From positions 3,776,001-3,840,000 of the forward strand of contig OZ244621.1 of NCBI GenBank assembly GCA_965218425.1: DNA of 64,000 nt, given 5' to 3'. Below, piece by piece: positions 36,001 to 42,000 of this stretch. This DNA is from an uncultured Candidatus Binatia bacterium. Lineage in GTDB: Bacteria; Desulfobacterota; Binatia; UBA9968; CAXXLF01. The position numbers are program-made. Positions within the stretch are counted from its first letter, which is position 1, and every line of letters begins with the position of its first letter.

Positions 36001-39000
36001 TCTTCCGATATGGCTTTTAAAATCGCGGGATCCATGGGATTTAAAAACGCTTTGGAAAAGGCCAAGCCGGTCCTTCTGGAACCGGTCATGTCCGTGGAGG
36101 TCACGGTGCCCGAGGATTGCATGGGAGATGCCATTGGGGACCTCAACAGCCGCAGGGGGCGGGTCCTTGGGGTGGAAGCCAGAGGGCACAATCAAATTAT
36201 CAAAGCCAGGGTGCCCATGTCGGAGATTCTCAGGTACGCTCCCGATTTGACCTCAATGACCAGTGGCCGTGGAGAATTTCAAATGTCGCTCTCGCACTAT
36301 GATGAGTTACCGGCCCATTTGACGGAAAAGGTGGTCAGGGAGAGCAAGGCGGCAAACCAGGGAGAAGGCAAAGAAAAAGACTGAGGGTAAGTGGAAGACA
36401 GCTTTAAAAATTTCCAGGCGACACTCCTTTACTGCAACAAGTGTCGTCGTGCCATGCCGGTGCGCGAACGCCTGCTCCTCGTCCTTCCGGACGGGAACCT
36501 GTACGACTACACCTGTCAGGGCTGCGGTGATTCCGTGGGCTCGAAGAGCGACAAAATCCCTGCGAATCGAACCATCACAGATCCTTTGGTGCGGTGATCC
36601 CAGGGAAGCCCTCCTATTTGTTCTTGGGGAGTCCAATGACGTATTTGTTTGGCCTGTAGCGGCGCCGCGGGGGTTATCGCCACTAGATATATCCTCATAA
36701 AACGTATATAGATTAACGGATTGTAGCTTAAAATTAGAGTAAGTTATAAATTATCGGTTTATTTCTGGTCATCGCAGGTTGTATCCCATGATCAGCCGTG
36801 TGCCCACCCTGGGAACCTTATCCGGTCGGCGAAAAGGCGCGTGGAGACGGTGTTATTCCTACCGTTGATGGGGCCTATTGACAATTGGGCGTGACGGATT
36901 AAATTGATGTGGGAGCAGCCCATGGTTGTTTACGATTTGATCTGCGGACAAGAGCATCAGTTTGAGGGATGGTTCCCAAGTGCCGAGGGGTTTGAGGAAC
37001 AGGTGGCAGGCCAACATCTCTCCTGTCCCGTGTGTGGCACAACGAAGGTCGTGAAGCTACCCCATGCCTGCGCCATCCACACCAAGAAAGGAGAAAAGAA
37101 GAAGCGACCTCGCCGCTCCCGGGCGCCTTCCCGTCCCCTCACTGAGACGGAGGCTAAGGAGGCCCTCCTTCGGGTGCACCACTATATACGTGAGAACTTT
37201 GAGGACGTGGGCTCCCGTTTCCCGGAGGAGGCTCGTAAGCAATTTCACGGAGAGGTTGAAAAGAAAGCCATCTACGGCACGGCCACATCGGAGGAGCGGG
37301 GGGAACTGGATGCCGACGGCGTTCCCTACGCCATTCTCCCGAAGCCGGAACTGGATAGCTAGTCATCTGCCCCATTAACTCCATCCTGGTGATTCCGCAG
37401 GGAGCCACCTTCCTCTTCTGAATTCACTAAGGCTCTTTTACGAAAATTGCTTGATTTCGTAAACTGAGAACCCCGATCCTTCCCCATTTCCCCTTAGTCG
37501 GATACGGTCAAAGAGACGTCTCGCACCACAATTAGTGACGGACGGGCTTCCTTTAATTGACAAATCACCTAAGGCTCTGATACGTCAATACCATGGCCAT
37601 GGACGCACGTGAAATCCGTAACGTGATGGGGCATTTTGCCACCGGGGTAACGGTTATAACAACTAAAGACTCATCTGAAAAACCCTTTGGCCTAACGGTC
37701 AATTCCTTTACCTCTCTATCCCTGGATCCCCCACTGGTCATCGTTTGTGTGGACAAAACCGTGGATTGCTACTCCTGCTTTGATGGATCAAGAGTCTTTG
37801 CCGTCAATGTATTGGGCGAAGACCAGGAAGAACTATCGCGCCGCTTCGCCACCAAGGGAATCGAAAAGTTTAAAGGGCTCCAATGGCGCATGGGGGAACA
37901 CGGGTCGCCGCTCCTTGACGGTGTCGTCGCGACCATCGAGTGCAAGGTTCACCGCAGCTATGAAGGTGGCGACCATACCATTTTTCTCGGTGAAATATTA
38001 AACGCCACCGCCAGCGGGAATAGACCCCTGCTGTTTTTCAAAGGAAAGTACAATCGTCTACCGCCGCCCTAGACAGAAATCACCCTTCAGGTGCTCCATC
38101 CTCATAGTTCCGGCGCTCGAAGAGCCGGCAAAAGACCGATCATCCGACTTCTACATGCTCAGGTTCAAATGGTTTTGCCAAGCACTCGGAATGCTTGCGG
38201 TTCGTTCGAATTTCAAGTAATTAAACAGGACAATCACACGGGTGGGCATAAGAGCCGGAACCTCTAACCCTCCGTCGGAATAAACCATGCAGCGAGGAGG
38301 TCCCCCATGCCGGTTTCCAGTGAAAGTTTCGTCAAAGAAATCCAGGAAATGGTGCAACAAAAACACTCAAAGGATCACCCTGTGATTGGGATGATAGAAA
38401 AAGGGGAGTTGAGTCGTGAGGCTCTGAAGGGATTCGTTGGCCAGTTCTATCTATTTTTCCCGAAGCCGTTTCCCAAGCCCATCGCGGCGATGTTGGGTCG
38501 GTGTCCCGATGATGAGGTATTGGAAAAAATGTGGATTGAGAACGTGGTGGAGGAGGGGACCGGGGAAATTTCCGGTACCGACAGCCACAAAGGGCTCTAT
38601 ATTCGCTTTGCTGGGGCGCTCGGGTTTTCCAAGGAGGAGCTGAACCGAGTGGAACCGCTACCCGAAACGTTGGCCTTCGTGGATTGGCGTGAGTTGCTGA
38701 TGTACCAGAGGTCCTGGTTGGAGCTCTATGCGAGTCAAGGCTTTTGCCTCGAGGGAACGGCAAGTCCCCGCATGTCGAAGATCGTTAAAGGACTAACCCG
38801 ACATTATGGTTTCAAGATGGATTCGGAAGATATCCGGTATTGGACCCTTCATATGGGAGTGGACGAAGAGCACATGAAGGTTGGCCCCGAAGCTGTGAGA
38901 AAGTATGCCGTCACCGACGTCCAACAGGATCAGGTTCGCGAGGCCGTGCAGAAGACCCTGGATATATTCTGGTTGGCCTTTGACGGCATCAAGCGTGCCT

Positions 39001-42000
39001 TCGTGGACAATGACCCGTTATATTCAAAGTGGAGAAATGGGTGCTAAAGGGAGGAATCGGACATCCATGGAAATGGTAGATCTTTCACGTGTTATCTATG
39101 ACGGTATGCCAAAGATCCCCGTTCTGCCCGATGTTCATGTGAATCAGTGTTTCAGCCTGGGAAAGGGGCACGCCCTCAATGTCACTGAGATCTCTTTACC
39201 GTGTCACGCCGGGACCCACGTGGATGCCCCCGTTCATATCATTGCCAATGGGAAGTCCATTGAAGAGATGCCGTTGGAGTCCTTCGTGGGACCTGGTGCG
39301 GTGATCCCGGTAGAAAAAAAGGGTGGGGAGGAGGTCACTGCCAGGGATTTAGAGGTCTCTGGGGTGACTGTTAACCGGGGAGATATACTGATGCTGTTTA
39401 CCGGCTGGGATACCAAGTTCGAGAGCCCGGACTACAATCTTCATCCCTATCTATCCGTGGACGCCGCTCAATGGATCGTGCAAAGAGGCGTTAAGCTATT
39501 CGGCATCGACTGTATCACGGTTGATCTTCCAACCACTCTAAGGCCAAAGGATTTTGCCTTTCCAGTGCATAAGACTCTCTTGGGCAACGAGGTACTCATC
39601 GCCGAAAATGTGAACAATCTGGGTCGGATCGTTGGGAAGAAGAGTCGGATCCTCGCCTTTCCCATCATGGTCAAGGGCAGCGACGCTGCCCACGCCCGGA
39701 TCGTTGCCGAGATCCTCGATTAGCCATTAAGCTGAGGAGAGAACTATGCCATTCGACAAACCGGTTCACGGCATCATCGGAGCTTGTCTAACACCTTTTG
39801 GGGATGACGATCGAGTCAATTTTAAGGCGTTGGAACAAGAAATCGAATTTCTGGTGGCCGACTGTGATGCCATCTCCATCGCCGCGGTTGAGGCCGCGGA
39901 ATACACCATGCTCACCCGGAACCAGCGTAAAGAGTTGGTTCGCATCGGGACCGAGATGGTGGCAGGACGCGTGCCGGTGCTGGCGGGCTGCTCTTGCCCG
40001 TCCCCCTATGAGGTTATTGAACTGGCGGAATACGCCGCCACCGTGGGGGCCGACATGGCGCAGGTGTTGATGCAGCTTAGACCCTGGGGCCAGCAACCCA
40101 CCATAGCAGAGCTGGTGGAGTACTTTACCCAAGTGGCCTCCGCCAGTCCGTTGCCTATCGTTACCTACCACAATCCGGGTCCCGGGGCTGATCCACCCAT
40201 TGAGACTTTTGTGAAGCTTAGCGAGTTGACCAACATTCAGTACTTCAAGGAAAGCTCGCGCGATATTACCAAGATTACACGGCTGGTGGAGCAGATCGAA
40301 ATGGCGGGGAAGGGGCATTACTTCACAACCATGCAGCCCCTCCTTGCCACCCTCATGATGGGAGGCTCCGGGGCCACCATGCCGCCTCCAGGGACTCGTA
40401 TCGGCGCCCAGGTGGTGAAGGCCTTCCGTGAAGGAGACGTTAATCGAGCGCGGTATTGGCAACGGTGTTTCTCACTGTTCCCCGGTAAATGGGGGGCCTA
40501 TGGCTTACCTCCAGTAATGAAATCGGCCCTGAGACACTTCGGTGTCGATATCGGTGATCCGGTACGACCCTATACCCAGGTGACCCCGAGGGACCATGCG
40601 CAGATCGGTCAATTCTTTCGCCAGATCGGTTTGCTGGGGGACGGTGTGCCCCAAGAGCTTTCCATCAAAGAGGCCGTTGCGGGGTTGGAACAAGAAGACA
40701 CATTTCTACGCTAGCATACGCGCTCCTTGCCAAAGAATTCTTTTTGGTTTGGTCTCGCAGCGTAAGTCCAATGATTTCACGGTGGGGTCATATATAGGTC
40801 GGAGTGATGATACGACGAATATTTGATTGGCTCACGGAATACATCAAGACCTTTTCGGATACCATGCTGTTGCTCTTGCTTCGATCCACCTCATGGTTCG
40901 GTCGAGAGCTCACCCGGGAGGGAAGGGCGGAGCAGGACATGTGGCGGAAGCAACGGCTTAGGAACATCCGCGGCCTCGGTCTGATTTCACGCCGCCGGCA
41001 AGTGAGGCAACAGGGAGAATGAACGGATACAGTCGTTTGGGAAAACTTAAGGTGGAGAACCTAACGTGATCAATGGGCGGGCTCAAATCGTTATCCTGGG
41101 TGGTGGTATTGGTGGCCTTGCGGCTGCCACAAAGCTGGGTCGTTCCCTTGGGGCGAAACACGATGTGATTCTAATCGATCGGCGTGATGAGCATTTCTTT
41201 ACGCCCTCCTTCCTTTTCCTGATGTTAGGGCAACGAAAGCCGCAAGATCTAAAGAGAAAACTGAAGTTACTCGAACGGCGCAAGGTCAAGGTGATACAGG
41301 CTGAGATCCTGGGTATCGACCCGGGCCGTCAGGAGGTGGTGCTTGACAGCCAGAAGATCCCCTACGATCATCTTGTCGTAGCCCTTGGCCTGCAGACGAG
41401 GCCAGAGATGATCCCTGGTTTCAGCGAGGGGGCCAACCACGCCTGGGAGATGGATGCGGCATTGAAAGTACAACGGGCCCTGCAGCAGTTTAACGAAGGC
41501 CGTATCCTCGTGGGAGTTCCGTTGGGGCCCTATCGCTGTCCGCCAGCTCCCTATGAGACCCAGTGGTTGCTGGACACCTATTTTCGCGGCCTAGGTCGGC
41601 GCGACCGTGTGGAGATCGAGTATTTCACCCGGGAACCTGAGCCTGCGGGGGAAGCCCACGACCCCGTGGTTTGGATGGACGACCAGAGTAAGAAGAGAAA
41701 TATCAAGCAGAACTACGACTTCACCGTTCAGTCCATTGACCCCGAGAAGAAAGCCGTTGTGGGTTTGTACGGTTACAGGCTCTCATACGATTTATTGTTC
41801 ATGATTCCCCCACACAGGCCCGCCCAGGTGCTCAGGGACTGTAGCTTGGCGGACACCGAGAACGGTGTCAGGATTGACTATGAGACCCTGGCCACCAAAT
41901 GGGACAATGTTTATGCCATTGGGGACTGCGCAGAGTTGCCCGCTTCTAAGGCCGGGGGAGTGGCGCACCAGGAAGCAGACGTTGTGGCCCACAACCTGGC

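Follow-up and report, generated by a model that had tools for sequence, protein, structure and literature searches.

Gene context suggests a catabolic setting for CADD-like heme-oxygenase-fold dimetal proteins multiplied in an order of uncultured Binatia

Results

A conserved five-gene unit

The window analysed here is a 64,000-nt stretch (positions 3,776,001 to 3,840,000 of contig OZ244621.1) of the genome of an uncultured Candidatus Binatia bacterium, a single contig that is 97% complete. It carries at 38307..42217 a unit with the order heme-oxygenase-like dimetal protein (HDO), cyclase, DHDPS-like lyase, 71-aa ORF and selenocysteine sulfide:quinone reductase. A genome-wide survey's note had reported a conserved HDO-cyclase-aldolase locus starting at 37593; neighbour counts by tblastn bore out the conservation, with HDO, cyclase and DHDPS-like genes contiguous in 70 of the 73 related loci with room, and moved the boundaries. 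The HpaC-like flavin reductase gene at 37593..38072 (+ strand, PF01613) was found in just 2 of 73 related loci with upstream room and is a neighbour outside the unit, which extends downstream to 42217.

The first gene (38307..39047, + strand) encodes a 246-aa HDO matching PF14518 (E 2.8e-25) and CADD (E 1.8e-17). Starting 19 nt behind it, the second (39067..39723, + strand) encodes a cyclase-family metal amidohydrolase of the kynurenine formamidase/isatin hydrolase fold (PF04199, E 1.9e-34; PDB matches) with an intact HxGTHxDxPxH motif, kept in 76/76 aligned sequences. It scored 80 bits against the KynB equivalog, whose cut-off is 223, and a kynurenine role was rejected, as the genome has no tryptophan dioxygenase (no PF03301 match). 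The product of the third gene (39746..40714, + strand; PF00701, E 8.6e-33) is a DHDPS-fold Schiff-base enzyme in which Lys168 and Tyr141 are present in 76/76 aligned sequences and AVEA[AS]EY, in 75/76, replaces the usual GxxGE (GTTGE) loop; lack of this loop and a TIGR00674 score of 90.6 bits against a cut-off of 206 ruled out DapA. The fourth gene, a previously unannotated 71-aa ORF (40807..41022, + strand), had no Pfam match at 1e-8, and a related ORF was found in most of 56 intergenic stretches.

The fifth gene (41066..42217, + strand) encodes a sulfide:quinone-reductase-like flavoprotein with an in-frame TGA at 42053-42055, predicted to encode selenocysteine 330. The TGA lay at the same place in 60/66 alignments, with a conserved C-terminal tail behind it in 58, Cys158 was present in 68/68 aligned sequences and the genome has a tRNA-Sec. 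Its best NCBIfam match was the selenoprotein subtype of type III sulfide:quinone reductase (NF049943, E 1.6e-69), with which it has the Cys/Sec pair in common; the score of 235 bits against a cut-off of 525 refers to the TGA-truncated form without the C-terminal tail, the match ending at the TGA. In a SECIS check, a short hairpin 3' of the TGA folded no better than shuffles (z -0.05). The reductase gene lay downstream on the same strand in 66/66 loci with room. Convergent to the unit is a persulfide-dioxygenase-like metallo-beta-lactamase fused to rhodanese (42219..43256, - strand), which is partly conserved, at >45% identity in 25 of the 53 loci with about 6 kb downstream.

These genes could also be read as a sulfur module, in which the HDO would oxidise the sulfur of a thiol, thione or persulfide and not ring carbon, the reductase would dispose of sulfide or re-reduce the dimetal site and the 71-aa protein would be a coupling factor. 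The reductase is indeed tied to the unit more tightly (53/53 loci with about 6 kb downstream) than a housekeeping nuclease gene (39/53), and its Cys158, a near-invariant Cys147 two residues before Glu149 in the HDO and the persulfide-dioxygenase/rhodanese gene point the same way. We nevertheless judge this reading distinctly unlikely, given that C-N and C-C bonds are the targets of the cyclase and DHDPS folds and that 39 related loci in Acidimicrobiia (described below) gave no match to the selenoprotein reductase.

The unit is single-copy in the genome, conserved at 76-93% identity in one gene order and usually located near housekeeping genes, its core has no transporter or regulator gene, and every validated HDO is biosynthetic (PMC13108848). 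All of this would suit a biosynthetic locus in which pyruvate and an aldehyde are joined by the DHDPS-fold enzyme, ring closure or trimming falls to the cyclase and oxidation of the product by the HDO gives an order-wide cofactor or metabolite, while other copies may be mixed. This is, in our view, unlikely: some of the related loci have an importer (21 of 80) or an Amidohydro_2 gene (24 of 80) upstream, no ligase or carrier protein is nearby, and hydrolases, Rid proteins and Rieske oxygenases accompany the relatives that come closest outside Binatia. NadA is present, so that there is no quinolinate gap, and a quinolinate role was rejected. A promoter and terminator scan of the putative operon remained at chance level.

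The window HDO and its solved relatives

The predicted metal ligands of the window HDO are E83, H94, E149, H182, D186 and H189. By alignment, all six were present in 80/80 related loci, and this set suggests metal binding and O2 use. The structural model (pLDDT 89) is a heme-oxygenase-like helical bundle that superposed on CADD with Z 23.9 and rmsd 2.1 over 214 aligned residues. The HDO-type pABA synthases CADD/CT610 and NePabS (PDB 1RCW, 8VA9, 9PJ4) share with it the fold, 27% identity and the 3-His/3-carboxylate ligands. The survey had called the ligand set "CADD/PqqC-type", which is apt for CADD but not for PqqC (PDB 1OTW, 3HLX): PqqC shares the fold (Z 23.6-23.7, about 20% identity), but lacks the equivalents of His94, His182, Asp186 and His189, four of the six ligands, and is metal-independent (PMC13108848). 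The window HDO scored 67 bits against the PqqC model TIGR02111 (cut-off 240), and the reported absence of pqq genes was confirmed for pqqB and pqqD, which had no match, and for pqqE, which stayed below cut-off (best 58.5 of 381 bits). "PqqC-type" is a misnomer for these genes, whose products JGI/IMG often names PqqC.

PF03070 gave 23 matches in the genome, 14 of them at E<=1e-6 as surveyed, and TenA structures matched the window model at Z 17-19. The HDOs might on this basis resemble TenA in being hydrolases or lyases without redox chemistry, with metal acting as a Lewis acid or unused, and the 9/35 copies without the full ligand set (see below) and the lack of an electron donor beside most copies would be in line with this. 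TenA thiaminase II has a catalytic Cys nucleophile and no dimetal site. We find such a role quite improbable, since CADD, FlcD and HrmI outrank TenA by structure (Z 21.7-23.9), the profile favours CADD (E 8e-36) over TenA (E 1e-6) and the six ligands are invariant in 80/80.

The survey had also proposed that one copy may make pABA, in the absence of pabB. The latter was confirmed: the sole chorismate-binding enzyme has a glutamine amidotransferase behind it, and the pair is read as a putative trpE-trpG, which leaves no separate PabB. A folP-sized pterin-binding gene is present, and no solved relatives are closer than CADD and NePabS. A self-sacrificing pABA synthase standing in for PabB is, for all that, very improbable indeed. 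No aligned copy has a Tyr at the CADD Tyr27 column (one N-terminally broken copy and the two ferritin-like genes described below have no residue there), which leaves the idea unsupported, and the best TIGR04305 score among 25 matches was 86.8 bits against a cut-off of 200. In the window HDO, itself below this cut-off, Ile27 and Ile159 stand at CADD's Tyr27 and Lys152; among the 80 orthologs the Tyr27 column holds 78 Ile and 2 Val, and the Lys152 column, which is gapped and unreliable for paralogs, Ile or Val in 80/80. The nearest HDO copy lies about 54 kb from folP, and the paralogs have hydrolase, lyase and cupin genes around them instead of folate genes.

Number of copies and ligand sets

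An iterated profile search of the whole genome, started from the window HDO, reached convergence at 38 ORFs (next match E 0.027), equal to 37 genes as two ORFs are halves of one frameshifted gene. This reproduces the 37 genes of the survey. Two of them, at contig positions 3289372 and 3464091, look ferritin-like, with two ExxH motifs each and weak, mostly ferritin-clan Pfam matches, thus leaving 35 HO-fold genes, the fold being modelled for the window copy and assigned by profile for the others. The 3289372 gene also had a weak PF14518 match (E 0.001); the top Atlas matches of one ferritin-like copy were an unnamed cluster (0.98) and a ferritin-like cluster (0.96), and a single-sequence model of the 3464091 product was unusable (pLDDT 38).

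The survey's 26 copies with a full ligand set were likewise recovered, E-H-E-H-D/E-H being kept in 26 of 38 aligned ORFs when the middle Glu is allowed to shift by one residue. This corresponds to the CADD 3-His/3-carboxylate set; it is missing in 9 of the 35 HO-fold genes, in one because the gene is split. The second HO-fold paralog in the window (62938..63651, - strand) is a profile member without the second His ligand; upstream of it are cupin, UbiD and Amidohydro_2 genes, for the most part past the end of the window. Some copies without a metal site adjoin intact copies. Such adjoining copies may quite plausibly be structural subunits; the oxygenase AibH1H2 pairs a catalytic with a structural paralog. 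The expansion is order-wide (61/61 genomes, with a median of 15.5 copies in the 60 others), compared with <=8 copies elsewhere in the class.

Gene neighbourhoods of the copies

A catabolic family lay within two genes of 27/35 HDOs, where 10.8 were expected and circular shifts gave at most 23 (p 0.0017, the floor), for families picked after the neighbours were seen and seeded from them, and with the 35 HDO genes clustered. This rate (77%) exceeds that obtained with UbiD (49/72) or cupins (59/104) as anchors. Specifically, cupins were found within two genes 12 times (3.0 expected), class II aldolases 4 times (0.4 expected) and DHDPS-like genes 4 times (0.4 expected). The surveyed setting among cupins, amidohydrolases, aldolases and UbiD genes was thus strong for cupins, but not significant for UbiD within two genes (5/35, 2.2 expected, p 0.085; p 0.042 within four genes); Rieske and Mo-hydroxylase links likewise fell short of significance at the two-gene distance. 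Among cupins directly upstream of an HDO, 2 of 3 tested in full matched gentisate or aminosalicylate 1,2-dioxygenase models (E<1e-75), the third matched more weakly and two others had no match to these models. No NRPS, PKS, carrier-protein or ATP-grasp domain was detected among the best five families per protein of the 288 neighbours scanned (of 304 called), in agreement with the survey's placement of HDOs outside biosynthetic clusters.

Co-scaling of HDO and UbiD numbers over 60 genomes (rho 0.58) was dropped as support, since HDO numbers tracked UbiD no better than an unrelated family (glycosyltransferases, 0.50; genome size, 0.57); after accounting for genome size the values were 0.39 vs 0.28 in family f2 and 0.06 in f3. 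The candidate adjacency elsewhere of mirror clades 3953777 and 1165504 was also rejected, 1165504 orthologs lying beside UbiD in 2/2 relatives and 3953777 orthologs having no partner in 2/2.

Relatives in other lineages

Relatives with 35-43% identity were found at 39 loci in Acidimicrobiia, with no cyclase or DHDPS match, near an alpha/beta hydrolase (37 loci), Amidohydro_1 (28), a Rid-family protein (20) and a ring-hydroxylating Rieske subunit (32). These neighbours amount to an amide hydrolase and an enamine deaminase in other folds. In Acidimicrobiia group 1, 8/19 loci also contain a glyoxalase-fold gene, whose product could itself be a ring-cleaving enzyme. Relatives of another paralog (31-33% identity) occur on Caballeronia and Skermanella plasmids and on the Cupriavidus metallidurans CH34 megaplasmid, next to ferredoxins, a ferredoxin reductase, HbpS-like and cyclodeaminase-family genes and, in two annotated records, an aldehyde dehydrogenase and GntR; no ferredoxin or full-length reductase like those of Caballeronia was found in the Binatia genome. 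The operons in Acidimicrobiia and in these cultured Proteobacteria look degradative. Plasmid searches with the window HDO returned 7 records only, at about 25% identity, with one paralog none and with two paralogs mostly PqqC, and no relative of the 4285381 paralog could be confirmed in a metagenome scan. In Roseobacteraceae, genes of the DHDPS-like subfamily follow that of a PhzS-like flavin oxygenase; in haloarchaea they have as neighbours hydrolases and a distant relative of 2,5-dihydroxypyridine dioxygenase (E 2e-8).

Discussion

The survey's view of the HDOs as catabolic enzymes draws on gene context, found in three lineages and backed by the shift control, but on context alone and in a genome already crowded with catabolic families (124 Amidohydro_2, 104 cupins, 93 Rieske alpha, 72 UbiD). 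From this context we consider it more likely than not that the order (UBA9968-type Binatia) has multiplied a CADD-like HDO branch whose members serve in the main as dimetal enzymes that activate O2 in the breakdown of small aromatic or heteroaromatic compounds. At the window locus, the HDO probably oxidises an N- or S-containing ring. A four-step sequence is offered tentatively: the HDO would oxidise or open an N-containing, possibly S-containing, ring to an amide, the cyclase would hydrolyse an N-formyl or amide bond, the DHDPS-fold enzyme, via a lysine Schiff base, would deaminate, hydrate or cleave an enamine or oxo-acid, and the selenocysteine flavoprotein would oxidise released sulfide or move electrons for the pathway. 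The ring-opening of N-heterocycles by NicX/NicD/NicF and RutA-D follows the logic of oxygenase, amide hydrolase and enamine deaminase; it is alike in this logic alone, with other folds at each step and no homology to HDO.

Of more than 10,000 HDOs, a 2026 review lists about a dozen as validated, all of them biosynthetic; its text contains neither "degrad" nor "heterodimer" and "catabol" once (for heme), and it calls for ways to assign functions (PMC13108848). FlcD of fluopsin C biosynthesis, which has the HO fold in common with the window HDO (Z 22.4), is described in PMC11363339 as a C-excising dioxygenase that cleaves C-C bonds with O2 and releases formate without a reductant; it is mononuclear (E-H-X-H-V-R) and biosynthetic, whereas the HDOs here keep the dimetal set. 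Apart from FlcD, the characterised HDOs depend on a reductant, and the failure to find a Caballeronia-like ferredoxin or full-length reductase in the Binatia genome counts against the catabolic reading. The amidohydrolase-related dinuclear oxygenases of the AibH1H2 type are another case of a fold repurposed as a catabolic dimetal oxygenase (PMC13154177; see also PMC7782822), by analogy only, as theirs is a TIM barrel and not the HO fold. No report of a catabolic HDO, of a Binatia HDO or of an HDO linked to a selenoprotein sulfide:quinone reductase was found in the literature searched, which covered main texts and few subscription journals; supplementary network data for FlcD and MboA might include these clusters. 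The passages of PMC11472048 that were consulted hold nothing on these genes, and a term search of PMC8879955 gave no match.

More speculatively, CADD-like HDOs might form an unrecognised class of catabolic oxygenases opening or hydroxylating N/S-heteroaromatic rings, in places as pairs of catalytic and metal-free subunits and with selenoprotein redox partners, present in dozens per genome in one order and each with its own substrate. The HDO family has so far been known for building molecules, but the copies here sit among breakdown genes, and this hints at a route not yet described for the degradation of small ring-shaped compounds. As a related operon is present in cultured Cupriavidus metallidurans CH34 and Caballeronia, the question is testable now. 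PqqC naming in JGI/IMG can make these genomes look like PQQ producers. If true, a catabolic HDO branch would add a new oxygenase type to biodegradation and would shed light on the diet of an uncultured lineage whose genomes each carry 20 or more UbiD genes.

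Fold and metal ligands of the window HDO

The 246-aa protein encoded at 38307–39047 (+) matched PF14518 (E 2.8e-25) and also PF03070, with scores below the cut-offs of the CADD, PqqC and BesC family models. Its nearest solved relative was Chlamydia CADD (E 1.8e-17), and a structure model built from 33 sequences (pLDDT 89) superposed on CADD over 214 residues (Z 23.9, rmsd 2.1), followed by PqqC (Z 23.7), FlcD (22.4) and HrmI (21.9), with TenA proteins lower at 17–19. By alignment, E83, H94, E149, H182, D186 and H189 correspond to the six ligands of CADD, and all six were unchanged in 80/80 orthologous loci (the best 80 of 94). 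The genome-wide survey's note had described a CADD/PqqC ligand set; since PqqC lacks four of the six residues and is metal-independent (PMC13108848), the set is that of CADD, which was complete in 26 of the 38 ORFs recovered from the genome. The putative dimetal site would activate O2. A non-redox chemistry is quite improbable when set beside the invariant ligands. Many orthologs (among P0015–P0114) are called “PQQ biosynthesis protein C” in JGI/IMG and some “TenA family transcriptional regulator” at NCBI, labels that look like misannotation.

The source genome, of which the window covers positions 3776001–3840000, is a single contig of 4.46 Mb, 97% complete, in which pqqB, pqqD and pqqE were not found, in agreement with the survey. 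It had further proposed that one copy may make pABA. PabB was not found in the genome, a folP-sized gene exists (loci L119 and L120, at contig 1353172 and 853852, cover the folP-sized gene/PabB question), and the only chorismate-binding enzyme, with its amidotransferase, is read as TrpEG. However, no aligned HDO copy has a Tyr at the column of CADD's ring donor Tyr27, none passes the TIGR04305 cut-off and no CADD-type synthase was found among the copies, so that pABA synthesis is highly improbable.

A conserved five-gene unit

Of 94 related loci, the best 80 (76–93% identity) included 73 with enough room for all three genes, and in 70 of these the HDO, the cyclase (39067–39723, +) and the DHDPS-like gene (39746–40714, +) were contiguous, one gene being missing or broken in each exception. 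The HDO-cyclase-aldolase operon reported earlier is thus real, but its limits were wrong: a flavin reductase lies beside it in only 2/73 loci, and the unit extends downstream. A conserved 71-aa ORF without a Pfam match (40807–41022) is followed by a sulfide:quinone-reductase-like selenoprotein gene with a conserved in-frame TGA (41066–42217). This ~70-aa ORF and the reductase gene lay downstream on the same strand in 66/66 loci with room for the reductase, and the unit therefore comprises five genes. The TGA was present in 60/66 alignments, 58 of them with a conserved tail after it; Cys158 was invariant and tRNA-Sec is encoded in the genome. ORF callers end the reductase at 42055, dropping 54 residues. 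Where 6 kb of downstream sequence was available, the reductase was kept in 53/53 loci, compared with 39 for a housekeeping nuclease and 25 for a persulfide-dioxygenase/rhodanese gene.

The selenoprotein points to a substrate that contains sulfur or to a path for electrons. Elsewhere in the genome, a glutathione S-transferase gene was seen in the same run as an HDO in two cases (L002:6323–6934 and L007:4309–4920), a hint of thiol chemistry. A sulfur-centred module is unlikely beside the other members of the unit. With its metal motif intact, the cyclase is similar to kynurenine formamidase and isatin hydrolase; tryptophan dioxygenase was not found in the genome. The DHDPS-fold protein retains Lys168 and Tyr141 and has an unusual AVEA[AS]EY loop. 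Its closest plasmid relatives, from Salipiger and other Roseobacteraceae, lie behind a PhzS-like flavin oxygenase, and its haloarchaeal plasmid relatives among hydrolases, a cyclase and a nitrilase, with a distant 2,5-dihydroxypyridine dioxygenase relative also nearby.

Paralogs in the genome and across the order

An iterated profile run over all six-frame ORFs of the genome converged at 38 ORFs, with a clear gap before the next match. Two of these are halves of one frameshifted gene, giving the 37 genes counted previously. The copies at contig 3289372 and 3464091 each carry two ExxH motifs and have weak Pfam matches mostly to the ferritin clan, and the Atlas neighbours of the one tested were unnamed and ferritin-like; both were dropped, which lowers the count to 35. 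These two genes (L017:5373–6020 and L018:5592–6239) are 50% identical to each other and belong to no named family, and one lies 17 nt behind a cupin gene. Median pairwise identity among the copies was 17%, and the paralogs are therefore old and diverged. Three copies are damaged (L020:13953–14755, L007:5490–6196 and L019:5688–6344), one split by a frameshift, one frameshifted near its start and one with an early TAG, reflecting either true decay or assembly errors.

A profile of 34 paralogs, built without the frameshift-split copy or the ferritin-like pair, had matches in 61/61 genomes of the order. The 60 genomes other than the source held 2–39 matches (median 15.5; at least 10 in 53), compared with a median of 1 and a maximum of 8 in 52 genomes of the class outside the order, the counts in distant genomes being lower bounds for a profile derived from the source genome and related genomes not being independent. 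The expansion is an order-wide trait, with the source genome at its top.

Gene neighbourhoods

Neighbouring genes were called with our own codon model and 288 of 304 were scanned, revealing cupins, Amidohydro_2 proteins, UbiD decarboxylases, Rieske oxygenases, Mo-hydroxylases, importers and aldolases of the class II, RraA and DHDPS types. The genome is full of these catabolic families (124 Amidohydro_2, 104 cupins, 93 Rieske alpha subunits, 72 UbiD and 37 Mo-hydroxylase large subunits), and a circular-shift control was therefore run. A catabolic family lay within two positions of 27/35 HDOs versus 10.8 expected (maximum of the shifts 23; p 0.0017, the floor), a result inflated by the families having been picked after the neighbours were inspected. 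The signal was carried by cupins (12 versus 3.0 expected), class II aldolases, DHDPS-like and Amidohydro_2 genes. The survey's placement of HDOs among catabolic genes accordingly holds for these families but not for UbiD (p 0.085 within two positions); Rieske and Mo-hydroxylase genes likewise gave no signal within two positions. Of five neighbouring cupins tested, two matched gentisate or aminosalicylate dioxygenase models strongly and one more weakly, all three below the model cut-off, and the other two had no match. According to PMC13108848, the dozen or so validated HDOs are biosynthetic. Domains of the NRPS, PKS, carrier-protein and ATP-grasp types were not found among the 288 scanned neighbours. 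A biosynthetic role is rather unlikely here.

The genome also has 24 cyclodeaminase-family matches, and at least 20 UbiD matches occur in each of 61/61 order genomes. Three tandem RraA-type aldolase genes lie opposite one HDO (L001:3261–5245), and extra PanB-like genes near two others (L023:7664–8470 and L025:10989–11795). The window itself contains a catabolic island (66–26489) of four UbiD genes, three Rieske oxygenases, a LigB-like dioxygenase, a TPP enzyme, a flavin oxidoreductase and importers. The region 44000–48734, with lower GC (0.49) and a short methyltransferase, presumably includes a transposase remnant, and GC skew is mostly negative past about 50000.

Five full-length copies have lost at least three ligands. 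Four directly adjoin an intact copy and one lies behind a UbiD gene. In relatives, adjacency of three metal-free/intact pairs was kept in 3/3, 1/1 and 2/3 cases (leaving out a locus from the unpublished genome G092). Such copies are rare, with close orthologs in at most 5/121 order genomes, a tally that takes in the unpublished G069, G074 and G092, which bear on no other claim. According to PMC13108848, HDOs studied so far require no protein effector. The metal-free gene behind UbiD is kept there without an intact partner (L009:13005–15401, L172 and L173) and is possibly a UbiD accessory protein.

Relatives outside Binatia

A profile search returned 1101 representatives at E<=0.001, few of them close. 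One near representative led to 39 Acidimicrobiia loci, forming two related groups rather than 39 independent cases, with proteins 35–43% identical to the window HDO. The cyclase, DHDPS and reductase had no match in these 39 loci, which instead contain an alpha/beta hydrolase (37), Amidohydro_1 (28), a Rid protein (20) and a ring-hydroxylating Rieske subunit (32). The Rieske genes of these operons (L125–L163) are anthranilate-dioxygenase-like, luciferase-like oxidoreductases also occur, and several of the genomes have two or three HDO copies.

The paralog at contig 3517187 has relatives at 31–33% in seven plasmid or megaplasmid records. The three loci examined (L122, L123 and L124), from Caballeronia, Skermanella and Cupriavidus metallidurans CH34, contain ferredoxins, a reductase, HbpS-like and cyclodeaminase-family genes, with aldehyde dehydrogenase and GntR in the two annotated records; they also encode a 530-aa hydrophobic protein without a Pfam match. 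Judged from gene content, the layout is that of a putative multicomponent catabolic oxygenase, in cultured bacteria.

Role of the HDO expansion

The fold, ligands, copy number, spread and neighbours of these HDOs are documented here, and their role in breakdown would follow as a proposal: they are probably, though by no means certainly, catabolic O2-using enzymes. The closest orthologs, in each of two lineages, have as partners a hydrolase of amides and a second enzyme that could use an enamine or oxo-acid. The folds of these partners differ between the lineages, and the combination would fit the logic of oxidative N-heterocycle opening. The Nic and Rut routes are examples of such opening. The full order of steps at the window locus is a tentative suggestion. 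FlcD, also of the HDO fold, cleaves carbon bonds with O2 and needs no reductant (PMC11363339). The nearest parallel in the literature is a set of dimetal oxygenases with the amidohydrolase fold, many of which are encoded among catabolic genes (PMC13154177), and some of the 124 Amidohydro_2 genes may encode such enzymes. Our literature search, whose coverage excluded most subscription journals, returned no catabolic HDO and no account of this expansion, in a family estimated at no fewer than 19,778 putative members (PMC13185094). The Caballeronia, Skermanella and Cupriavidus metallidurans CH34 loci offer a cultured test system. The HDO expansion, one among several catabolic expansions of this lineage, is a real, order-wide expansion of a little-explored enzyme family in degradative contexts.
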